DNA of 51,268 nucleotides from a virus. Taxonomy: Duplodnaviria; Caudoviricetes. Under the pieces are notes generated by a model, which was not told the DNA's origin, did no database searches, and worked only from the letters and a program-made list of their open reading frames with translations. The stretch's first letter is position 1. Each line of letters opens with the position of its first letter. The translations under genes and the position numbers were made by a program. Location of the stretch: the IMG/VR virus record IMGVR_UViG_3300011116_001156, positions 1 to 51,268 of that record; one strand, given 5' to 3'. Below, in pieces: positions 8,011-36,887 of the stretch.

Positions 8011-9465
8011 TTGCAAAGCAAACTCTCCATGTCTACCCAGCTTCAATTTCCCGAACATGCCCAGGTACTTTTCAAGCCCAAGCGCTTTAAGGTGCTGTGG
8101 GGCGGGAGAGGTGCGGGGAGAAGCTGGAATATTGCTCGCGCATTGCTGGTGATGGGGACACAGCGGTCAATCAGAGTTCTCTGCTGCCGCGAGTTGCAAA
8201 AGTCGATCAGTGAGTCAGTGCATAAGGTGCTCTCGGATCAGATCGAGTTCCTCGGGCTCAGCTCATGTTACAGAATTGAAGTTGCCAAGATTTATGGCAT
8301 CGGCCCGGCGCTGGGAACGGTCTTCTCCTTCGAGGGGATTAAGAATAACACCACTGCGATCAAGTCGTATGAGGGTATTGACTATTGCTGGGTTGAGGAA
8401 GCGAATAAGGTCAGCAAGGCGAGCTGGGCCATTCTGATCCCGACAGTCAGAAAGGAGACTCCCCTCGACTGGCGCGAACGGGGAATGGAGAAGCCAGACT
8501 TTCAATCTGAGATCTGGATCAGCTTTAACCCAGAGCTTGAGACTGACTACACCTACACTCGTTTTGTCAAGGACTCGCGGCTGAAGACTGTCCAGATGCA
8601 AGGCTCCAATGGTCTGCCCTGGACGTACAAGGAGTCCCCGGACAGCTTCGTCGTGAAGATGACCTACGCGGATAATCCCTGGTTCCCAGAAGTGCTCCGG
8701 ACAGAGATGCTGACGGAGAAAGAACGCGATTATGACAATTACCTAAACGTCTGGGAAGGGCATACCATTCTCCAGCTGGAGGGGGCGGTCTTTAAGAAGG
8801 AGCTGCGGAAGGCTCGGGAAGAGGATCGGATTTGTACTGTCCCCTGGGAGCGGGAGGTTCCGGTGGATACCTTCTGGGACTTGGGACGGAGAGACTCCAC
8901 TGGTATCTGGTTCGGCCAATTTGTCAGCTTTCAGTTCCGCGTGCTGGAGTACTTCGAGGACCAGGGCGAGGACATTACCCATTATATCAAAGCCTTGCAG
9001 AACAAGGAATATACTCTTGGCCACCACTTCCTCCCCCATGACGCGAAGCATAAGAAGCTGGTGTACAAACACTCAATCGAGCAGATTGTGAAAAACGCCT
9101 TCGGGAGTGACAATGTGACAGTTCTGCCCAGGGTCCCGGCGAAGTTCGACTCTATCAACGCTGCGCGTATGTTCTTCCCGAAGTGTTACTTTGATGAGGT
9201 TGGCTGCGCGGATGGGCTGGCGCATCTTAATCGGTACAGGTTTAAGGTTGTAGATAGTCAGTTCAGTAAGGAACCCCACCATGATGATGAGGGGCATTCG
9301 GACTGCGCTGACGCGTTTATGGAAATGGCCAGGGCCGCACAAATGCCCCGTGCTAAGCGAGGGCTCCTCGCCCGGATCGGACTCCCTGCGAGCGCTCGTC
9401 AGGGCAAAAATCGTATTACTGGTACTGCTGGCGTTCGCGCTGACGGTACTGGTTGGATGAGGTAG
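8011..9465 (+). CDS. terL: Terminase large subunit (PBSX-like)
   Basis: GGRGAGRS Walker A, WVEEA Walker B, SFNP, nuclease motifs WDLG, LPHDA, HSDCADAF; start may be ATG 8029. Confidence 0.95.
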   Translation: MQSKLSMSTQLQFPEHAQVLFKPKRFKVLWGGRGAGRSWNIARALLVMGTQRSIRVLCCRELQKSISESVHKVLSDQIEFLGLSSCYRIEVAKIYGIGPALGTVFSFEGIKNNTTAIKSYEGIDYCWVEEANKVSKASWAILIPTVRKETPLDWRERGMEKPDFQSEIWISFNPELETDYTYTRFVKDSRLKTVQMQGSNGLPWTYKESPDSFVVKMTYADNPWFPEVLRTEMLTEKERDYDNYLNVWEGHTILQLEGAVFKKELRKAREEDRICTVPWEREVPVDTFWDLGRRDSTGIWFGQFVSFQFRVLEYFEDQGEDITHYIKALQNKEYTLGHHFLPHDAKHKKLVYKHSIEQIVKNAFGSDNVTVLPRVPAKFDSINAARMFFPKCYFDEVGCADGLAHLNRYRFKVVDSQFSKEPHHDDEGHSDCADAFMEMARAAQMPRAKRGLLARIGLPASARQGKNRITGTAGVRADGTGWMR

Positions 9466-11573
9466 ACCAGATGGCAGCTGATCCCGAACTCGCCTCGTTG
9501 ACCCTGAGCAACGATCCAATTGTCGCGGAGGCGACGAAGAGATTCCGTCGGTGCTCGGAGTGGGAAGCGACGGCAAGGCAGAACTTTCTGTCGGATTATA
9601 AGTTCGCTCATGGGGACTCGGATAATGGGTTCCAGTGGCCCAATCGTATCCGCAACAATCGGGACCTGGACGCGCGCCCCTGCCTGACGATGAATGTCGT
9701 TCGTCAGCACAACCTGCAGATCATTAACGAGGCGAAGCAGAATAAGTCTAGCGTGGCTTTCAAAGCGACTGGTGGCGGGGCGAGCAAGGACTCGGCGGAT
9801 ATGCTCCAGGCGATGTTCCGGAGGGAAGAGTATCTCTCGAATGCACAAACCGCGTATGAGACAGCTTGTGAGTTTCAAGTGGCTGGCGGCTGGGGCTGGT
9901 GGAGAGTTGTGCTGGAGTACGAGGACAACAAGACCTTCAACCAGGGCTTTCGGATTAAACGAGTCTGGGACCCGCTGAGCGTCTACATGGATATGGACTG
10001 TCAGGAGAAAGATTGCTCTGACGCCAGGTATGGGTTTGTCTTCGATCTAGTCCCGGATGAACAACTGGAGGAAGCCTATCCTGGGATGAAGGAGCTGATG
10101 ACCCAGGCACCGCTGGGCAGCGCGACCACTGATGACTCCTGGAACATCAAGGATCATACCAGGGTCTGCGAGTACTTCCGCAAAGTCCCGAAGAAGGACA
10201 AGCTGGTGAGCTTCATCAACCCGAATGATGGGCGGAGAGTCCAGTTGAAGAAGTCTGGTATGCCACCAGAAGTCTACAAAGAGGTTCGACTGCTGCCGCT
10301 GACCAAAGAGCGTGATATTGTGAATTGGGAAATCCAGTGGTATCTGATCGTCGGCCAACAGATTGTGGATGAGACAATCTTTCCTGGGAAGTACATTCCG
10401 CTAATCCGAGTGCTGGGGGAGGAAACCATCATCGAGGGGATCATGGACCGGAAGGGCCATACTCGCGGGATGAAAGACGCGCAGAGAATGTATAACTACA
10501 ACGCCTCAGCGCAGATTGAATTTGGTGCTCTGCAGAGCAAGACTCCCTGGATCGTCGCGGCGAAGGCGATTGAAGAGTATGAGTCGATGTGGAATAGCGC
10601 GAATACGGTCAATCACTCGGTGCTGGTGTGGAACCATATCTCTGACGATGGTGGAGATGGGAAAGTTCCACCTCCTCAGCGCGTCGAGCCCCCGACGGCA
10701 TCCCCTGCCTATGCCTCTGGAATGGAAACTGCTTTCAACCAGATGATGATGACCTCTGGGCAATGGCAGAACCAGATGGGCATGGGCGGGAATGAGAGAA
10801 CTGGCGTGGCCATCGAAAGACGCCAGGACCAGGGATACACCGCTGTTTATCATTTTCAGAACAACTATGCGGAAGCGCTGAGGTTCACGGGAAAAATCTA
10901 CCTGGACGTGTTCCCGATAATCTACGACCGGCCACGACTGCTCAAGCTTCAGCTTGACAATGGCGAGGACTTCGACCTGCAGCTCGACCCGAACGCGAAG
11001 AGCGCCTACCAACAGCAACTGGACAAGGACAACCAGATTATCTCGCGGGTGCTAAATCCGACTGTTGGGGAGCATGATGTGCAGGCGGATGTGGGACCGG
11101 CGTACGGGACGAGGAAGGAGCAGACGGTGCAGGCGATGACACTGTTGCTGACGCAGAGCAAGGAACTGTCTCCGATCATTGCGGACCTGTTGCTCTCTGC
11201 TATGGACTTCCCGGAGGCGAGCGAGGCCGCACGGAGGCTGAAACGGATGGTTCCCCCGCAGGCCCTGGGCTTCGGTCCGAGCCAGAAGGAGCAGGAACTG
11301 CAACAGCAAGTCGCGGCGTTGCAAGACGCGCTTACGAAGTCGCTGCAAAAGCAAGGCGAGCAGAAGATCAAGATGCTCAGCAAGGAAGAGCTGCGGGATG
11401 TACAGGTCTTCGACGCAGAGACAAAGCGGATGGTCGCGCTGAAGGACTACCTGGGGCTGAATCCAGAAGGTGTCAAGGCGCTGCTCAAGGACCTGGAGAT
11501 GCAGAGTCTCCAGACAAGTATTGTTCAAATCGCAAACAGCGAAGTCGGGCAAGGCTCGACTGGAGGGAGCTGA
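9453..11573 (+). CDS. P22-like portal protein
   Basis: QWP...RP.LT.N, MKDAQRMYN, NERTGVAI..RQ.QG, DV.VGP.Y.TR motifs; follows terL. Confidence 0.92.
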   Translation: MDEVDQMAADPELASLTLSNDPIVAEATKRFRRCSEWEATARQNFLSDYKFAHGDSDNGFQWPNRIRNNRDLDARPCLTMNVVRQHNLQIINEAKQNKSSVAFKATGGGASKDSADMLQAMFRREEYLSNAQTAYETACEFQVAGGWGWWRVVLEYEDNKTFNQGFRIKRVWDPLSVYMDMDCQEKDCSDARYGFVFDLVPDEQLEEAYPGMKELMTQAPLGSATTDDSWNIKDHTRVCEYFRKVPKKDKLVSFINPNDGRRVQLKKSGMPPEVYKEVRLLPLTKERDIVNWEIQWYLIVGQQIVDETIFPGKYIPLIRVLGEETIIEGIMDRKGHTRGMKDAQRMYNYNASAQIEFGALQSKTPWIVAAKAIEEYESMWNSANTVNHSVLVWNHISDDGGDGKVPPPQRVEPPTASPAYASGMETAFNQMMMTSGQWQNQMGMGGNERTGVAIERRQDQGYTAVYHFQNNYAEALRFTGKIYLDVFPIIYDRPRLLKLQLDNGEDFDLQLDPNAKSAYQQQLDKDNQIISRVLNPTVGEHDVQADVGPAYGTRKEQTVQAMTLLLTQSKELSPIIADLLLSAMDFPEASEAARRLKRMVPPQALGFGPSQKEQELQQQVAALQDALTKSLQKQGEQKIKMLSKEELRDVQVFDAETKRMVALKDYLGLNPEGVKALLKDLEMQSLQTSIVQIANSEVGQGSTGGS

Positions 11574-11927: not shown

Positions 11928-12740
11928 ATGCACCTCAGAGAGCGATTCCTCGGTCAGACTAAGTTCTACTCCCCGGACGAACCGGCAGGGACATCTGCGC
12001 CGACTCCAGAACCAGCAGTGGCAGCGACTCCTGCTCCGACGCCAGCACCTACCCCGGACCCGGCTGCTGCCGCTGCTCCCACTCCTGCCCCGACTCCTGC
12101 TGAGGACTGGCGTGACAAACGAATTGCTGAGCTGACGTTCAAGCTCAATGAGGAGAAGAAAAAGCACCCGCCGGTCGCGGCAGTTACTCCTCCCCCGACT
12201 CCCTCCCAGGCCCCTGGTGAGTCCGAGGCCTCGTTCAACCAGAGGGTTGCCGATACTGCCGCTGAAATGGTTCGGATTGATAGCTGGAATAAGCAATGTA
12301 ACGAAGTCGCGGCAGCTGGATCGAAGGAGTTTACAGACTTTGGAACCAGGCTGGCTGGTGTCCGAACTGTTGTGAATAATGCCGACATGGCAGAGGTGCA
12401 AGCGTACAACGATGTCCTGGCCGCGACGTTTGAAGCGGCGGAAGGGAACTCGCATAAGCTGCTTTACTCCCTGACCGAGAATCCGGGCGAGTTTCGGAAG
12501 CTGATGGAAATGAGCCCTACCAAGCGAGCGGTCGAGTTGACCCGGAAAGCGGATAAGCTGGGGCAGGCTCCGACTGAGCCGGACCCGAGCGGCGCGCCGA
12601 GGCCGATCACTGCAGTGTCGAGCCGAGGACTCCACTACGACGGGATCAAGCCTGACGATGCTGTCAATGGCGCGAAGTTGCCAATTGGTCAGTGGATGGC
12701 AGAGAGAGAGAAACAAGCTGCTGAGAGAGGGATTCAATAA
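11928..12740 (+). CDS. Capsid scaffolding protein
   Basis: Pro/Ala-rich N-terminus, KRIAELT coiled coil, S.AP.PI motif, C-terminal WMAER; upstream of the coat gene. Confidence 0.8.
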   Translation: MHLRERFLGQTKFYSPDEPAGTSAPTPEPAVAATPAPTPAPTPDPAAAAAPTPAPTPAEDWRDKRIAELTFKLNEEKKKHPPVAAVTPPPTPSQAPGESEASFNQRVADTAAEMVRIDSWNKQCNEVAAAGSKEFTDFGTRLAGVRTVVNNADMAEVQAYNDVLAATFEAAEGNSHKLLYSLTENPGEFRKLMEMSPTKRAVELTRKADKLGQAPTEPDPSGAPRPITAVSSRGLHYDGIKPDDAVNGAKLPIGQWMAEREKQAAERGIQ

Positions 12741-12976
12741 TGCGAGTTCGCCATGCTAACGGGAAGGTTTCTGAAGGCTCGATGACTCACCACGACTCTA
12801 AGCGTGGAGTTGGTCGCGGCTTTGTGAGCAAAGAGACTCAGGCACACGAACGTAGCGAGGCTGACAAACGCAGTGAATATACTCGAGAAGCCGTCGGTCC
12901 TCATCGCGAACTTCCTGACGAAGACTACAGTGCTCCACTTGAACGGGATAAAGTTCCTCACGGATACGGTCGTTAA
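12740..12976 (+). CDS. Small charged hypothetical protein
   Basis: TAATG translational coupling to the scaffold gene. Confidence 0.5.
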   Translation: MRVRHANGKVSEGSMTHHDSKRGVGRGFVSKETQAHERSEADKRSEYTREAVGPHRELPDEDYSAPLERDKVPHGYGR

Positions 12977-13189
12977 GCCCGCAAGGGCTGGGTCCCAGGC
13001 CCGCTTCCTGGTGTTCGTGACTTCAGGCACGGAGTTACCTGATGCTCGGGAGGCAGGCCCGTAAACCTGCCCCAGTCTTGGCCTGGACTGCTGCCCTGCC
13101 TGCCCTACCATTGAGCTTGGGCAACTCGAACCCAGACCGGCTGGAGGCCGGTCACTGCAATAACATAGGGCTCAGGAGGCCCACGAACA

Positions 13190-14413
13190 ATGGCAAATTC
13201 GCTTCTTACAATCGACATGATTACTCGAGAGGCCGTGCGCCTCTGGAAGAACTCCAACGCGTTCATTCAGAACGTGGATATGCAGTATGATGAGAGCTTT
13301 GCTCAGGGCGGGGCCAAGATCGGTGACTCGCTTCGTATCCGGCTGCCGAGCGACTTTACCGTCGCGACTGGGCCGAGCTTGCAGGTGCAGGACACGACGG
13401 AACAGAGCACCACCCTCGTCCTCGCGACTCAGAAACACGTCGATGTGAGCTACTCGACCCAGCAGCGCACGATGCAGCTGGATGACTACTCTCGCCGTGT
13501 GCTCGCCCCGATGGTGAACAATCTGACGGGTGCGGTCGCTGTGGACATCATGTCTGGCTCCGAGGGCGGCATCTGTAACTTCGTCGCGAACCAGGATGTC
13601 AACAACGTCATCCTCAGCCCGATCGCCAGCACGTACCTGAATGCCGGTGCTTCGCTCGACATCAACTCGTCCCCGATTGCCAATCGTAAGATTGTTAACT
13701 CCCCGCGTACTGAGGCTCGCGTTGTGGCAGCCCTCAGTGGTTTGCTGAATCCTGCTCCGAGTATCTCCCGCCAGTATGTGACTGGCCGGATGTACGACGC
13801 GCTGGGTTTCATCTGGATGAAAGACCAGACGACGATCACGCACACCAATGGTACTGCGGCGCAGGGTGCGAACAGTGTAAACGGCGCGAGTCAAACCGGG
13901 CTGAGCATTACTGTCACTGCGACCTCAGGTACATTCAACATCGGTGATATTATCACCATTGCTGGCGTGACCTCGGTCAACCGCATCACCAAGCAGACGA
14001 CTGGTGAACTTCGCCAGTTCGCTGTCACGGCGAATGTGGCTGCGGGTAGCACGAGCATTCCGATCTACCCGGCGATTGTTCCGGCCTCCGGCGGTAATCA
14101 GGTCCAGTACCAGACTGTCGTGGCGAGTCCCGCGAACGGCGCGCTGATCAACCAGACGAACACCCTGGCTGCCAGTGCTGTTTATCGGAAAAACTTCGCT
14201 TACGCGCCGGAGGCAGTCACCCTCGCGACTGCCGATCTGGAAATGCCCAAGAGTGTGCATGAAGTCGCCCGTGAGCAGTTCGATGGCGTGTCCATGCGGA
14301 TGGTTACTGACTACTTCATCGGTACTGACCAGCTGATCACCCGCCTCGATGTCCTCTACGGCTATCTCTGGATTCGCCCGGAGTGGGCTGTGGTCGTTGC
14401 TGACATCGTTTAG
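13190..14413 (+). CDS. Major capsid protein (P22 coat-like)
   Basis: MANSLLTIDMITREA...AKIGDSLRIRLP N-terminus and RLDVLYG..WIRPEW C-terminus; AGGAGG RBS. Confidence 0.95.
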   Translation: MANSLLTIDMITREAVRLWKNSNAFIQNVDMQYDESFAQGGAKIGDSLRIRLPSDFTVATGPSLQVQDTTEQSTTLVLATQKHVDVSYSTQQRTMQLDDYSRRVLAPMVNNLTGAVAVDIMSGSEGGICNFVANQDVNNVILSPIASTYLNAGASLDINSSPIANRKIVNSPRTEARVVAALSGLLNPAPSISRQYVTGRMYDALGFIWMKDQTTITHTNGTAAQGANSVNGASQTGLSITVTATSGTFNIGDIITIAGVTSVNRITKQTTGELRQFAVTANVAAGSTSIPIYPAIVPASGGNQVQYQTVVASPANGALINQTNTLAASAVYRKNFAYAPEAVTLATADLEMPKSVHEVAREQFDGVSMRMVTDYFIGTDQLITRLDVLYGYLWIRPEWAVVVADIV

Positions 14414-31782: not shown

Positions 31783-33336
31783 CTATCCGAGCATCGGGCG
31801 AGAGAATCCAGTAAGTCTAGTGCGAGTGTCAGGGCGGCCAAGTTTCCATTTGAGCAGTCCCTCGGGATTTGGCCGGGACTGCTTGCGAGTCCCGCGATCT
31901 TGCCGAGGAGGCTCAACTGCGACTGCCGGTCCCCAGTTCCAGCCAACTTTCGCTTCTCCTGGAACGACATACTTCCGTCCTTTGTGCTCGAGTTCCACTC
32001 GGATGAGCTGGAGGGCCTCGGAGATAATGTCGTCCTCGTTCTCAGTCTCGCGATACTGGAACGTGATTGAGTCATACGTTTGAGCGAGCAACTGGACGTG
32101 AGGCATTTTCTTCCAGACTCTCCAAAGGCCCAAGTTCATTCGGTCGGCAGTGGTACTCTGCGGGAGAAAGGCAATCGCCTCGCGAAGAGTCGTATCATCG
32201 CCCGGTCGCCCGAAGAAATGCCGCTCACGTCCAAACGGTGTAACCAGCTTATTAGTCGTTTGTAGTTGCTCGGCAATCCATTGCCAGTACCGGCTGTGTG
32301 CCGGGTACGCACAGGACTCTCCCTTGCAATAGCGTTGCTGGAACTCCTCAGCCACTTTGGGGGGAATTTTGAGACTCCGAGCCATGGTCCAGGCAGTGCC
32401 CATGTAGTTACTCAGATGCCCGCCACGTTTGGACATATCGCGATAACTGAACTCGCGATAGAACTGCCCGTCAGCGATCTCTCGGTCTTTCTTTGCATCG
32501 CCAGTCCAGCGAAGCTCGGGCCAGATGAGTCGGCAGTTGGTCGTGTGCAAATCGCCGCCTTCGCAGGCGTTCAGGAACTTCCAGTCGTTGAACAGCACTC
32601 CTTCAAACCATCCGACATCTCTGGCCTCTACCTGCTCCAAATCTATGACGCAGAGCTTGTATCCAGCATCTGCGACAAAAACGTAACGCAGCCACTGATT
32701 AATGTTCTGCGCATTGCCGCCTGTTCCGAAGGCGTTGGAAGAGCTGCTGGGGCGTCCAGTTTCAGTTCCAGCAATGTTATAGCTTGTCCTATATCGTCCA
32801 TCAGGGTCAATTTCAGTCTCAAAGACTTCGCGCTGCTTGGAGAGATCGCGAATGGTGAGGATGCAGGAAATGAATGGTCGGGCATAGAGATAGCGCTCCT
32901 CGAGCTTTTCTAGGGTTTCACGATTTGTGGAGAGCTTGCGTTCCCCCTTTTGGTTGATCCAGATTTCTGGCAGCTGGAGCGCGCGGTAGAAGAAGTCTTT
33001 GAGCTGTGCGGGAGAGCGAGGGTTGAGTCCTTTGCCCCAGACTGCCTGGGCATACTCGTTGAGGATGGAGTTGAGTTGGTCGATCCGGGCTCCAAGCTCC
33101 CGTGAAGCCACCTGGCGACCAAGCTGGTCCACAGCGAATCCACGTTGCATTATCTCCAGATAAGGGCCTTGCAGGGCGCGCTCGAATGAGTAGACTGGGG
33201 GCGGCTGGTTGAACAGTCGGTTCAGCTCCGAATGGACCTCGAAGGTGACACAGGTGTCCAATCCGCAGTAGACCTGGTGCTGGACCTCAGCTGACAGTTG
33301 GTGAGGCAACAAACTCTCTGTCTGAATGTACGGCAT
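31783..33336 (-). CDS. polA: Family A DNA polymerase, ExoIII motif plus polymerase domain
   Basis: YCGLD (ExoIII), TETGR.SS, motif A DLEQVEAR, motif B R..SK..GH.SNY, motif C YDS. Confidence 0.92.
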   Translation of the reverse strand: MPYIQTESLLPHQLSAEVQHQVYCGLDTCVTFEVHSELNRLFNQPPPVYSFERALQGPYLEIMQRGFAVDQLGRQVASRELGARIDQLNSILNEYAQAVWGKGLNPRSPAQLKDFFYRALQLPEIWINQKGERKLSTNRETLEKLEERYLYARPFISCILTIRDLSKQREVFETEIDPDGRYRTSYNIAGTETGRPSSSSNAFGTGGNAQNINQWLRYVFVADAGYKLCVIDLEQVEARDVGWFEGVLFNDWKFLNACEGGDLHTTNCRLIWPELRWTGDAKKDREIADGQFYREFSYRDMSKRGGHLSNYMGTAWTMARSLKIPPKVAEEFQQRYCKGESCAYPAHSRYWQWIAEQLQTTNKLVTPFGRERHFFGRPGDDTTLREAIAFLPQSTTADRMNLGLWRVWKKMPHVQLLAQTYDSITFQYRETENEDDIISEALQLIRVELEHKGRKYVVPGEAKVGWNWGPAVAVEPPRQDRGTRKQSRPNPEGLLKWKLGRPDTRTRLTGFSRPMLG

Positions 33337-33749
33337 TATACTCTCTCGAATACTTGTTCCCAGAGATAATCAAACATAGCCTTGTCCTTGGTCAGAGGCA
33401 GGCGAACAGCTCCGTCCAAGGCGCGGAGTTCAATCGGCCTGCTCTCGCGGATCGCTTGCTCCAGCGCTGCCACCATTCCCTTACTCCACCCTCGGTCAGT
33501 ATAAAACACCTGCAGTTCTGCTACCTTCCTCCAGGCCAACCCGGCGGCAATTCCAAGTTCCCTCTCACTAGCCTTACTATCATCCAGGACTCCCGATTGA
33601 GTATACAGCAAATGGCTAGCAATCGGTGCCTCGCCGAGAGCGAGACAATCTGCAAGCGCGCGTCTGGCGTAGGTAACATTAGCCTCGATCTCCCCGGCGT
33701 ATGGACTTTCTACAATGACTCGGCGCATAGTGGCTCTCCCTTCACTCAT
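33336..33749 (-). CDS. Nucleoside 2-deoxyribosyltransferase-fold (DUF4406/DUF7768-like) protein
   Basis: VIVESPYAG..EAN..YAR...GEAPIASHLLY...G.S.GM. Confidence 0.6.
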   Translation of the reverse strand: MSEGRATMRRVIVESPYAGEIEANVTYARRALADCLALGEAPIASHLLYTQSGVLDDSKASERELGIAAGLAWRKVAELQVFYTDRGWSKGMVAALEQAIRESRPIELRALDGAVRLPLTKDKAMFDYLWEQVFERV

Positions 33750-35064
33750 CTTTCTTCTCCGTGTCAGCCTTCCGTTTGCGCATCAACTTCCAGGAACTTT
33801 CGTTGGTATAGATACTGCCGAGAAAGCCTAGTCCCTTCTGCATCTCAGGGAAGATAGAATGGTGCAGCAGCATGGTATCGGCCAAGTTCTGTCTTGGCTG
33901 GATAGCATACTTTGTCAGATACTGCAGATCGTACACCCCGTTCTGCCAAATCTTGGGGATGGGGGACTCAAGCAGCACTGCTGTCGCGTTCCATGCCCGA
34001 CGCTCGGACTGGTGATCGGGCCAGAAGTTATACCCAGGCTTGCTCCGGTCCCAGAACGGGATGACCATCGCTTCGGACGGGGACCTCGCGAAGCCGATGC
34101 AGGTGATCTGGCCCTGCGCTGTCTCGATGTCAGGTGCCAGCCATTCGATCTTGCCTTTGGCGAAGAGCTGGAGCGTCTGGTCTGTCCACGACTCCATCTC
34201 CTCCAATGTCGGGGAGACGAGAATGGAACGGCTGGGACGGCGAATGTCGGGAAAGTCTGCCTCCCTATTCGCCTTCATCAAGTCCGCGACTACAATCGGT
34301 CTCCAGGCCCATTGGCGGAGGACTCCGCTGGGATGGTAGGTTGGGAGGACTTTGAAAGGCTGAATTCGTTCGGAAGTCTGATTCTGAGCGTATCCCCGAT
34401 CTTGGCTGGCCATTGAGTTCCTAGGGCAAACTCCGAGTCCTTTGTCCAGCACAGTTCCATTTTCTGCTCCAGAATTGCTACCGACTGCCGAGTTAACTCC
34501 TGCAACCGTAACATCTCTGGGCTCAACTGAACTCGTGATGGCTCCTCGAATGGAGCCGATATTCGTGGCACGGAGAAGAGCCCAGCACGCAGTATTTCCA
34601 AGGGCAACAACCAGGTTTGGTCGCCAATGGTTAAGCTCAGTCCAGAGCCGGTCAAGCTCAGGGAGGTAATCTCCTCGTAGATATTTTCCTCTAGCAAGCG
34701 GCGGAAACGTGCCCGCGAGTTGCGAGACTTCGGTTTTTTTCTCACAGAGTTCCTCCAGTTTATTTCCAGGTGGTCGGAAGGCGAGCACGTTTGTCATCGC
34801 GATGCCTGCGGCAGCAAGCCATTCCTCGCGGGGGCGAATCCAGGCCGCGCCGTAGGTGTGCTGGGTGCAGATTTCAGCATGAAGCTCCGGGGCAATGCTG
34901 GGCATGGCCTCTCCAAGCATTCGGAACAGCTCTTTGCCGCTTTCTCCAGCGAATGGCTTGTGGCACTGGTCTTCTGTCTCGCCCCAGGCATCACCGACTA
35001 GGACAATTCGCGGAGTCTGGCTTCCTGCTGTGGCGGCAAATGGCGGGCGTGCTTGGTGGATCAT
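33742..35064 (-). CDS. UDG (family 4-like) fused to the ExoI/ExoII part of a 3'-5' exonuclease; N-terminal half of a split PolA
   Basis: IVLVGDAWG..E...PF.G.SG, TNV...RPP.N, LVVALGNTA, PTYHPS; then DIET, QNGVYDL, DTMLLHH; ATGA coupling at 35064. Confidence 0.88.
   Translation of the reverse strand: MIHQARPPFAATAGSQTPRIVLVGDAWGETEDQCHKPFAGESGKELFRMLGEAMPSIAPELHAEICTQHTYGAAWIRPREEWLAAAGIAMTNVLAFRPPGNKLEELCEKKTEVSQLAGTFPPLARGKYLRGDYLPELDRLWTELNHWRPNLVVALGNTACWALLRATNIGSIRGAITSSVEPRDVTVAGVNSAVGSNSGAENGTVLDKGLGVCPRNSMASQDRGYAQNQTSERIQPFKVLPTYHPSGVLRQWAWRPIVVADLMKANREADFPDIRRPSRSILVSPTLEEMESWTDQTLQLFAKGKIEWLAPDIETAQGQITCIGFARSPSEAMVIPFWDRSKPGYNFWPDHQSERRAWNATAVLLESPIPKIWQNGVYDLQYLTKYAIQPRQNLADTMLLHHSIFPEMQKGLGFLGSIYTNESSWKLMRKRKADTEKKDE
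34290..34745 (-). CDS. Candidate overprinted ORF containing a capsid N-terminus homologue
   Basis: GGAGG-6nt-GTG start; LTRQSV...DSEFA...AKIGDTLRIRLPNEF matches the coat's ITREAV...DESFA..AKIGDSLRIRLPSDF. Confidence 0.5.
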   Translation of the reverse strand: MRKKPKSRNSRARFRRLLEENIYEEITSLSLTGSGLSLTIGDQTWLLPLEILRAGLFSVPRISAPFEEPSRVQLSPEMLRLQELTRQSVAILEQKMELCWTKDSEFALGTQWPAKIGDTLRIRLPNEFSLSKSSQPTIPAESSANGPGDRL

Positions 35065-35339
35065 TTGTCTGCCAACAGCATATGCGCATTCGAGCTGATG
35101 ATGCTGAGCTTCAGCTCTTCCAATGAAGTGACTGCTGCGGTGTAGACAATCTTCCCCCTCGTCCCGTTCATGTAGTTCCCCTGAGAGTCCAACCCGATGT
35201 AGATAATCCCAGCCATACGGCCAGACCGGGCTTCTTCCAGCAAAGTCTCCAGCACGTCGATCACATCTGGCTGAACTGGCAGTCCTGCCGCAGTTGCTGT
35301 ATGCTCGAACAACGGGACAACCTTTGGTCCCTCGCTCAC
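35061..35339 (-). CDS. Hypothetical protein
   Basis: LETLLEEARSG.MAG pattern; overlapping start/stop coupling on both sides. Confidence 0.65.
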   Translation of the reverse strand: MSEGPKVVPLFEHTATAAGLPVQPDVIDVLETLLEEARSGRMAGIIYIGLDSQGNYMNGTRGKIVYTAAVTSLEELKLSIISSNAHMLLADK

Positions 35340-36796
35340 AGCCCGAGGCTCCCACCGGTTCTCTCCGCTGCCCGTTTCATTCGGGCCTGCTTCAGCGCGA
35401 GCCGCGCCGGGTCCACATATTGTTTATCGATCTCCAGCCCGAGGACATGACTCGCCCCGAGACTTTCAGCCGCACGTAGACTCGCACCGCTGCCGCAGGT
35501 GGGGTCCAGCATAATGGTGGTGTCATCCACCAGCATTTCCATGAAGTGCCGCAGCATAGGTTCGGGTTTCGTGCTCGGGTGGAGTTTTTTATCCGTCGGA
35601 GCGGAGTAGGCATCGCCTTTGACTCGGGCGATGTTGCGGTTGCCCCTGGATGCCAGCAGACAGGCCTCGTATACATGGCGGGCTCCTCGCTTCGGGTCTG
35701 ATGCAATCCCAGCATTGTCATTTTTGAACCAAATGAGCGGAAACTTCGCGAATTGGAGACTCGGGGCAAGTTCGTTGAAAAGGGCGACAGTGTTGCTGAT
35801 AATTCGGTAGTCGGCGGAGAGCCAGAACATCATGTGGGCAGAGACAGACATCACTCGGTCGAGGTTGGTGCAGAGAGACTTGATGAGTGTCTGGTACACA
35901 TCCACGCTGTCTTTGTAACCTAGCTTGCCGTTCTGGCCCAGTTCCGCTCCCCGGCCCTGTGGGCCAGAGAACAACTCGACCCCGTACGGAAAGTCACAAT
36001 GGATAAAGTTAAACTTCGGGCCAGAGTACTGGGGTGCCCAGTCGAGGAAGGAGATGTTGAGAATTGACTCTGGGTCAGGTTTGGGCGCAGGCTTGGACTG
36101 GCGAATGACTGGCGGTGCGCGAAGCTCTGGAGGCAGGGGCTCGCCTAGCTTTTTCAACTCCACCGCCCGCGCCTGATCAGCCTCGCTCAGCCCGGTGGCC
36201 ACCTGCTCGGGCTCGGTCTCTGCCGGGATGTCCTCGCCAGAGAGTAGGGCCTCCAGCTCCGCTCCCGCGTTCCGGTTCTCCCGGCGCTTGAGCATGTTGT
36301 ACGCTTCCCTCGCGGTGCCTGCACTTGCAACTCGCTCGTTCTCCATCTCTTTATAAACCGAGATGAGCAAACTGACATGGCTGAGTTCCATCGCGCACTG
36401 GGCAGCGGTCTCACCCATGGTCCAGTCAGGGTCGAGTTGGAGCTGCAGCTTATGCATTCCCCCCACCGCTCGGACAGTGTCTTGCCAGCAGAGGTCTTCC
36501 CGATGGGCGTTCTCGACGAACTCGATTAGTTGCTGTTCGACGGGGGTGAGCTGACTGATCTTCCTGGCGAGGATTTTCTCCCAGCCGAGATTTCGGCAGG
36601 CGGTCAATCGACGCTCTCCAGCCTGAAGGATAAAATCATCCGAGATCAGAATGGGACTCAACAGCCCGTGCTGTGCGATTGACTTCTGCAGCCAGGCTAC
36701 CTCCAGGGCTTCCTTCCCCGGCTCGCGCTGGCGCTGGTCGCGGAGGACTTTAATCTTGCTGATCTCGATGAGAGAGACTGACTGCTGTAGCTTCAT
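35336..36796 (-). CDS. ParB-like domain fused to an N4/N6 DNA methyltransferase
   Basis: GLLSPI...AGERRL...EN..R.DL; DFPY (motif IV variant), HPSTKP, LDPTCGSG. Confidence 0.85.
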   Translation of the reverse strand: MKLQQSVSLIEISKIKVLRDQRQREPGKEALEVAWLQKSIAQHGLLSPILISDDFILQAGERRLTACRNLGWEKILARKISQLTPVEQQLIEFVENAHREDLCWQDTVRAVGGMHKLQLQLDPDWTMGETAAQCAMELSHVSLLISVYKEMENERVASAGTAREAYNMLKRRENRNAGAELEALLSGEDIPAETEPEQVATGLSEADQARAVELKKLGEPLPPELRAPPVIRQSKPAPKPDPESILNISFLDWAPQYSGPKFNFIHCDFPYGVELFSGPQGRGAELGQNGKLGYKDSVDVYQTLIKSLCTNLDRVMSVSAHMMFWLSADYRIISNTVALFNELAPSLQFAKFPLIWFKNDNAGIASDPKRGARHVYEACLLASRGNRNIARVKGDAYSAPTDKKLHPSTKPEPMLRHFMEMLVDDTTIMLDPTCGSGASLRAAESLGASHVLGLEIDKQYVDPARLALKQARMKRAAERTGGSLGL

Positions 36797-36887
36797 GGAC
36801 TGGTGTCCCCCAGAATGGCGATGGTGATGGAAAGTGTCTGGGGAGGGAGGCATGGTTCCCTCCCCAGATTGGTCAGCAGAATGGAGG

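Follow-up and report, generated by a model that had tools for sequence, protein, structure and literature searches.

The stretch of phage DNA considered here, hereafter the window, comprises 51,268 bp and is a complete virus record (IMG/VR record IMGVR_UViG_3300011116_001156) with direct terminal repeats that originates from an uncultured phage. The element under study is an insertion in a replication gene encoding a UDG-like domain and a 3'-5' exonuclease (UDG-exo). Read in the +1 frame, the insertion resembles the N-terminus of P22-type coat proteins. A preliminary description of the window had proposed an early-expressed, capsid-derived peptide that acts as a decoy, inhibitor or assembly timer, and had named a relic captured from the coat gene of another phage as the alternative. 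The features referred to below are compiled in Table 1.

Insertion in the UDG-exo gene

Related UDG-exo loci were collected from IMG/VR (31) and from metagenome contigs (54), giving 85 loci with 26-57% identity, among which some contigs are counted twice across the collections, e.g., L032, which equals L155. The distance between the motifs RG and LPTYHP is 195 nt in the window vs. 30-57 nt in the 69 related loci in which both motifs could be located, in good agreement with the insertion recognised in the preliminary description. The loop of the relatives spans 10-19 residues, and DNA homology with them is resumed at about position 34357. With a length of approximately 135-150 nt, the insertion is in frame and free of stop codons in the UDG frame, adding about 45 residues. 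It occurs neither in the closest relative from IMG/VR (55% identity) nor in that from the metagenomes (57%). Furthermore, a search with the UDG-frame residues 176-237 against approximately 5.8 billion proteins recovered only the protein of the window itself, which is present on four contigs.

An AlphaFold2 model of UDG-exo, based on a 34-sequence alignment, reaches a mean predicted local distance difference test score (pLDDT) of 83, with 292 residues at or above 90. Residues 186-230 are modelled with a pLDDT below 50 and without secondary structure. According to this model, the UDG frame reads the insert as a hydrophilic, presumably disordered surface loop. The protein matches the Pfam families UDG (E 7.6e-16; residues 14-253, interrupted) and DNA_pol_A_exo1 (E 1e-4). 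With both profiles matched and a DNA_pol_A gene situated downstream, UDG-exo constitutes the N-terminal portion of a family-A DNA polymerase that is split, its glycosylase activity being putative. Among named phages, Caulobacter phage Kuura has the nearest UDG-exo (34% identity).

Contigs from other public sequencing runs cover the insertion with zero differences (X6, 34270-34542; X8, 34368-34518; X9, 34454-34663), and variants inside the insertion were not seen in the contigs of four runs (X6, X8, X9, and X10). An assembly chimera is already refuted by these independent contigs, which span both junctions. That the insertion is instead an intron or intein, and as such also lies outside the mature gene, is suggested by nothing beyond its unusual position. 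No Rfam family matches the window and the insertion lacks an RNA fold signal (z-score -0.09). It is in frame and adds only about 45 residues, and Pfam detects just the UDG and the exonuclease domain in the UDG-exo protein, without any Hint or intein match. Altogether, chimera, intron and intein retain next to no probability.

Run X9, a marine metagenome, additionally contains a second contig with approximately 91% identity over 34705-34932 and 20 differences. By hand computation, 16 of the 17 listed differences are located at third codon positions of the UDG frame. They are uninformative on the +1 open reading frame (ORF), because all 17 lie at 34774-34906 and thus upstream of its GTG codon at 34745. 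The middle of UDG-exo (34305-34825) shows weak codon-usage scores and a GC content at third codon positions (GC3) of 0.42-0.52 in the coding frame, compared to 0.65 in the genome and 0.7-0.86 in the exonuclease part. This low-GC3 stretch could be a recombinant or co-converted patch. Around the insertion site, GC and GC3 are slightly reduced.

Table 1. Positions of the features considered in the window and in related loci (L148, L032, and L121).
Feature	Position	Strand	Basis or remark
Terminase gene	8011-9465		P22-like head gene
Portal gene	9453-11573		P22-like head gene
Scaffold-like gene	11928-12740		P22-like head gene
Own P22-type coat gene	13190-14413	+	Pfam P22_CoatProtein PF11651, E 3.2e-33
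Family-A DNA polymerase domain gene	31783-33336	-	Pfam DNA_pol_A, E 2.7e-26
DUF7768 gene, in the variable slot between UDG-exo and polymerase	33336-33749	-	Pfam, E 1.5e-28
UDG-like domain and 3'-5' exonuclease gene (UDG-exo)	33742-35064	-	440 aa; translation and Pfam
Whole +1 ORF; flanks are out-of-frame UDG sequence	34290-34745	-	151 codons from GTG; 167 codons from stop to stop
+1 reading of the insertion, homologous to residues ~5-56 of P22-type coats (N-arm helix, F-loop, first E-loop strand)	34362-34514	-	BLASTP, custom HMM
Lineage-specific insertion, UDG-frame residues 186-230	34375-34509	-	AlphaFold2 disorder; absent from 33 aligned relatives; boundaries +/- ~15 nt
GGAGG, 6 nt, GTG, followed by A7 run	34734-34756	-	UDG-frame codons for LEELCEKK
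HNH_3+AP2 endonuclease gene	L148:344-865		Pfam
HNH_3+AP2 endonuclease gene	L032:3494-4000 (= L155)		Pfam
Patchwork ORF, 117 aa, between UDG-exo and polymerase	L121:1465-1818		TAATG overlap with the upstream gene

Coat homology in the +1 frame

The alignment of the +1 reading of 34514-34362 with the coat protein of the same phage, as given in the preliminary description, was reproduced: residues 74-131 of the +1 ORF match residues 1-59 of the own coat in BLASTP with 37.4 bits and an E of 6e-8 (21 of 64 positions identical). Conversely, when all six frames of the genome were searched with residues 1-70 of the own coat, the fragment was found at E 1.7e-6. A custom hidden Markov model (HMM) of 75 positions was built from 81 real coat N-termini (80 IMG/VR loci and the coat of the window). 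It matches the fragment over profile positions 5-61 with 43 bits (E 4.6e-15), while the remaining five frames yield E values of at least 0.5. The 15-residue core AKIGDTLRIRLPNEF corresponds to the commonest form, i.e., the consensus, of the coat family. Within the segment AKIGD.LRIRLP, 11 of 12 residues are identical between fragment and own coat, as reported before. At the DNA level the core is approximately 73% identical to the own coat gene with largely synonymous differences, so that the earlier statement of a resemblance to the coat in protein rather than in DNA holds as well. Judged from these alignments, the +1 frame of the insertion is a true homologue of the P22-type coat N-terminus.

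In a pattern scan, the 56-residue peptide retrieved 283 confirmed relatives from IMG/VR, for which identity reaches 47%, or 64% if only 28 residues are covered. The 80 loci kept from these are all coat genes, comprising 74 ORFs of 365-413 aa and six that run off the end of the locus, and the matches start at their first residues. The methionine of the fragment aligns with coat residue 5, not with Met1. Its first codons, which read VTVAG in the UDG frame, may belong to the native loop, because L004 contains the same five residues with 15 of 16 bases identical there. The product of the +1 ORF (P0002) has no match in Pfam at E <= 0.01. It is homologous to a fragment and is not a capsid protein, given that neither the full length of the HK97-fold (about 390-430 aa) nor the complete set of conserved N-terminal columns of PF11651 is found in it. 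Considering the codon-usage phase within the insertion, both frames are positive (log-likelihood ratios of 9.5 and 5.8), which fits a coding origin of the +1 frame and is undiscriminating as to function.

The fragment is 43-47% identical to the best of the 283 coat genes vs. 33% to the own coat. Three core positions differ from the own coat, and at two of them the fragment shows the family consensus (T and N) and the own coat the derived state (S and S). Furthermore, the helix part of the fragment is of an ILHQKLNF-like subtype, and that of the own coat is RLWKNSNAF-like. The fragment is thus not copied from the coat gene of the phage itself and appears to be foreign. The synonymous divergence mentioned above is uninformative on selection after the capture, because two diverging working coat genes would show exactly this pattern.

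Columns were regarded as conserved if their conservation reached at least 90% among 77 distinct real coats. Upstream of AKIGD, the conserved columns of real coats comprise LT, IT, F, YD, FA, and G with fixed spacing. The fragment matches 4 of 10 conserved columns preceding the core, compared to 7-10 in real coats, except for one N-terminally truncated row with 4. In the core, it matches 11 of 11. Its alignment requires a deletion of four and an insertion of three residues, and its HMM score of 43 bits compares to 88-148 bits for real N-termini. The part preceding the core is therefore degraded relative to every real coat. Compensating frameshifts were considered as a cause of the garbled middle of the fragment and rejected, since the other two frames are without coat signal.

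Searches for the donor returned no close source. An exact 32-mer scan of IMG/VR for donor DNA gave no match, the blastn-short comparison with all fetched loci did not go beyond 21 nt at 90% in coat genes, and among 50,697 named phages tblastn detected no counterpart of the fragment at E <= 0.01. A scan of genome contigs with the fragment revealed 11 coat genes of prophages or metagenome-assembled genomes with 36-61% identity, the value of 61% being reached over 28 residues only. In a search for longer homologous proteins, 12 candidates were scored and none reached E <= 0.001.

Candidate expression signals and a second coat-like fragment

It has to be considered whether the +1 frame is translated, with either the GTG at 34745 or the ATG at 34514 as start codon, or after slippage on the A7 run. 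Such translation would yield an early peptide with a mimic of the coat N-arm, which could bind scaffolding or coat proteins of competing P22-like phages of the ILHQKLNF subtype, or could modulate a capsid-sensing defence. Such a peptide is conceivable as an inhibitor, because the N-arm helix of the P22 coat is the scaffold-binding site and contacts the helix-turn-helix of the scaffolding protein gp8 via D14, E15, and E18, as stated in PMC9965877. The subtype, which differs from that of the own coat, is what would be expected of a weapon against other phages, and the perfectly kept core next to a diverged remainder points in the same direction.

With 167 codons, the open frame ranks second longest among 331 open +1 runs of the phage, of which 13 reach 100 and two reach 150 codons, at a rate of 0.032 +1 stops per codon in 21 genes. 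The positions of the frame of 151 codons from GTG, of the GGAGG located 6 nt upstream (34756-34752), and of the A7 run following it (34740-34734) are as previously described. The significance ascribed to these signals was not substantiated. GGAGG and the A7 run are the UDG codons for LEE and KK, respectively. Out-of-frame starts preceded by GGAGG occur eight times in 29,376 nt of genes, and an A-run of at least seven is present in 2 of 34 homologues, the other one being L016, which is devoid of the insertion. Both the GGAGG-GTG start and the A7 run are consequently at chance level. The run is not conserved and, as examined for the insertion only, is not accompanied by a structure signal, which differs from a programmed frameshift or slippage site. 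The 79 codons upstream of the insertion consist of UDG sequence read out of frame, and of 33 relatives without the insertion, 14 (42%) have no +1 stop in the corresponding stretch. A good Shine-Dalgarno sequence was not found at the internal ATG, and no promoter-like or terminator-like sites were found.

All 85 related loci lack the insertion, as do five complete related genomes that share the coat type; a second frame that is open and constrained in relatives, as characteristic of overprinted genes, was thus not observed. Moreover, about 50 residues consisting of the N-arm and one E-loop strand would be unlikely to fold alone. Given the chance-level ORF features and the degraded part preceding the core, the proposal of an expressed decoy, inhibitor, or timer is left without positive support, and we regard translation of the fragment as a mimic as quite unlikely.

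Coat N-termini were also sought outside the insertion. A profile search detected no coat-like match in the homologous loop of any of the 85 loci in any frame, and the sole match outside a coat gene, a weak one, was obtained for L121. In five complete related genomes with the same coat type only the true coat matches in each, and in four with a different coat type there is no match.

The match in L121 is situated in a variable part of the replication module. In the window, this module is located on the minus strand and consists of a ParB-methylase fusion, a 92-aa ORF, UDG-exo, DUF7768, the family-A polymerase domain, a DUF3987 protein, and a ribonucleotide reductase. The fusion (505 aa; 35336-36853), situated upstream of the replication genes, combines a ParB N-terminal domain with an N6/N4 DNA methylase. 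Among the head genes, a convincing ORF on the coding strand was not seen in the approximately 450 nt between the scaffold-like and the coat gene (12741-13189). In 57 related loci, UDG-exo and polymerase are separated by a slot whose size varies between -12 nt (genes adjacent or fused) and 1723 nt, and a DUF7768 homologue occupies it in 10 of them.

In L121, whose UDG-exo is 46% identical to that of the window, the slot contains a patchwork ORF. Its residues 45-103 match residues 3-62 of the window coat (E 3e-11, 41% identity), and over its first 28 residues it shares 66% identity with the beginning of an unrelated, Tat-signal-like phage protein of L179. The coat part retains AVRLWRNTN of the group's own coats, whereas YD and the AKIGD...RIRLP core are decayed. 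Stubs of gene 5' ends hence accumulate at insertion-prone spots of the replication module.

It is tempting to speculate that placing coat N-arm fragments in the early replication module is a recurrent habit of phages of this group, as in the +1 ORF of the window and the ORF of L121. These would be expressed as dominant-negative mimics that titrate scaffolding or coat proteins of competitors or blunt a capsid sensor, and QELTR, which is present in both, would be adaptive. The TAATG overlap of the L121 ORF with its upstream gene is in line with expression. The two stubs, however, derive from different subtypes and have decayed in opposite halves, the core being conserved in the window and AVRLWRNTN in L121, so that chance decay fits better than a conserved family of mimics. 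In addition, the L121 ORF is without confident fold (pLDDT of 0.35 in the Atlas model). We consider such a recurrent strategy very unlikely.

Homing-endonuclease site, origin of the insertion and known systems

Two relatives, L148 and L032/L155, carry an endonuclease gene in the UDG loop. In these two, an ORF with HNH_3 and AP2 domains (173 and 168 aa, respectively) is located inside the same loop and splits UDG-exo into two ORFs within the UDG fold, so that the distance from IRG to LPTYHP increases to 555-569 nt. The upstream half of UDG-exo runs on for a few codons of the insert before it stops, and the downstream half starts anew at an ATG overlapping the stop codon of the endonuclease. In their best segments, the UDG-exo halves of L148 and L032/L155 are 56% and 44% identical to the window, respectively, and the two endonuclease ORFs share 52% identity. 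The loop is therefore an insertion site of homing-endonuclease genes in the relatives.

Both cassettes open with GGAG, 7 nt, and ATGCCTTAYAGA in the +1 frame relative to UDG. Likewise, the coat-like reading of the window opens with GAG, 7 nt, and ATG in the +1 frame at a similar position of the loop. The common GAG-N7-ATG arrangement, which comprises only six specified bases, is taken as a hint. L003 and L122 also possess homologous endonuclease genes, which are situated upstream of UDG-exo; L061 has one downstream of a coat gene, and L153 shows a weak match. An endonuclease gene directly upstream of a coat gene was considered as the source of the stub and discarded, since among 80 coat loci only L061 possesses one, which is situated downstream of the coat. 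According to PMC10448857, homing endonuclease genes are often found near or within essential phage genes and at exchange boundaries.

In our assessment, the insertion is probably a stub of the 5' end of a foreign P22-type coat gene, which was acquired by illegitimate or endonuclease-associated recombination and is tolerated as a loop of UDG-exo. This corresponds to the relic offered as the alternative in the preliminary description, which is the best-supported reading, the coat subtype being other than that of the phage itself. The preliminary description was thus right about a real capsid-derived +1 sequence and less fortunate in the function it preferred. Approximately 135-150 nt of a foreign coat 5' end would have entered a permissive surface loop of the UDG-like domain through illegitimate recombination. 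Of the two frames, that of UDG alone would count; in it, the stub is read out of its own frame as about 45 disordered loop residues, which UDG-exo tolerates, and a +1 product would presumably not be made. The +1 frame would be open because the stub came from coding sequence and because this gene region is often free of +1 stops.

The event might well be tied to homing-endonuclease activity, a link for which, provided that the insertion is a relic, we see about equal chances on either side. A break at the loop, or the loss of a resident endonuclease cassette, would have been sealed with ectopic coat DNA of a co-infecting phage, and only repair outcomes that are in frame and free of stops would survive. 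The scar may destroy the target site of the endonuclease. The insertion would then be retained as harmless, or because the target is destroyed.

Related to this last point is the possibility that the insertion is kept for an effect in the UDG frame or at the DNA level, the coat origin being incidental. It would act either as a flexible loop that alters the interactions of UDG-exo or as a disruption of the endonuclease site that confers immunity to cleavage. Its in-frame, stop-free state, its identity in contigs of three further runs, its position in the loop where the endonuclease gene is inserted in L148 and L032, and the frequent occurrence of homing endonuclease genes near or within essential phage genes (PMC10448857) are compatible with such an effect. 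The endonuclease target is nevertheless putative, the loop is predicted to be disordered and has no conserved features, and the relatives manage with loops of 10-19 residues. Retention for such an effect is therefore unlikely.

Several observations are not readily accommodated by a tolerated coat stub. The core is perfect while the 36 preceding residues are far more diverged (11/11 vs. 4/10 conserved columns; Fisher test, hand-computed, approximately 0.004), and this contrast between core and N-arm is not readily explained by neutral decay acting uniformly on a typical donor. The value of approximately 0.004 is inflated by ascertainment, as the coat sample was collected with the pattern KIGDTLRI and the fragment was noticed via its core, and the comparison presupposes a typical N-arm in the donor. 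Both the window fragment (34514-34362) and L121:1597-1773 read QELTR, although QEL or ELT[RK] occurs in none of 91 real coat ORFs. As the codons differ between window and L121, QELTR does not reflect common DNA and constitutes an unexplained convergence. No stop has arisen in the +1 frame, the 97 flanking codons are open with a probability of approximately 0.04 at the +1 stop rate of the genome, and GGAGG with its 6-nt spacing before GTG is a usable start signal. Neither the donor coat nor an endonuclease homologue or remnant was found in the window, and the co-location with the endonuclease site could merely reflect the tolerance of the loop to insertions.

Considering known systems, the nrdA gene of Aeromonas phage Aeh1 is reportedly split by mobE and represents an example of genes-in-pieces. 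The split UDG-exo of L148 and L032 shows this arrangement for a polymerase-associated gene. The insertion of the window is located in the loop in which the HNH-AP2 gene splits UDG-exo in these relatives, whereas the window is without endonuclease gene, its gene is unsplit, and the site holds an out-of-frame coat fragment.

In yeast HO-break studies, filler DNA is captured at repaired double-strand breaks. The window resembles these cases in that a short ectopic fragment is located at a break-prone site without flanking homology; it differs in that such capture is not known to us from phages and that both the break and a microhomology junction would be putative in the window. Overprinted phage genes, e.g., lambda Rz/Rz1 and the overlaps of phiX174, likewise possess a second open frame on the same strand within a functional gene. 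To our knowledge, conservation among relatives extends to both frames in true overprinted genes, whereas the ORF of the window occurs in one lineage only and its homologous part would have been imported ready-made instead of arising in place.

Capsid-derived triggers of abortive infection are represented by the Gol peptide of T4 gp23 with Lit and by capsid sensing by CapRel. As in these systems, a short segment of the major capsid protein would be the active element. There, however, the capsid segment activates a defence, and nothing links the fragment of the window to a defence. We know of no phage-encoded decoy made of a capsid fragment. If the fragment is expressed, it would be the first phage-encoded mimic of a capsid N-arm, for which the prospects are low at present.

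The insertion also resembles mosaic junction scars, gene stubs and endonuclease-associated exchange boundaries of phages (Barth, Dunham and Seed 2023, PMC10448857), in that foreign sequence occurs at an endonuclease-used site near essential replication genes. The abstract of PMC10448857 describes islands and domain swaps, whereas in the window the stub forms part of an essential ORF, with which it is translated in a frame other than its own. The hypervariable neighbouring slot and the second patchwork of gene 5' ends in L121 are further likenesses to mosaic scars.

As a scar, the insertion would be a natural example of out-of-frame foreign coding DNA that was absorbed into an essential enzyme as a disordered loop, with the homing-endonuclease site in a polymerase-associated gene acting as a hotspot of this kind of event. 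Such a scar bears on phage mosaicism and on the way in which new loops and linkers arise, and it leads to the prediction that the insertion may protect its allele from the HNH-AP2 enzyme of relatives. The finding adds to kinds already known, namely mosaic scars and rearrangements at endonuclease sites.

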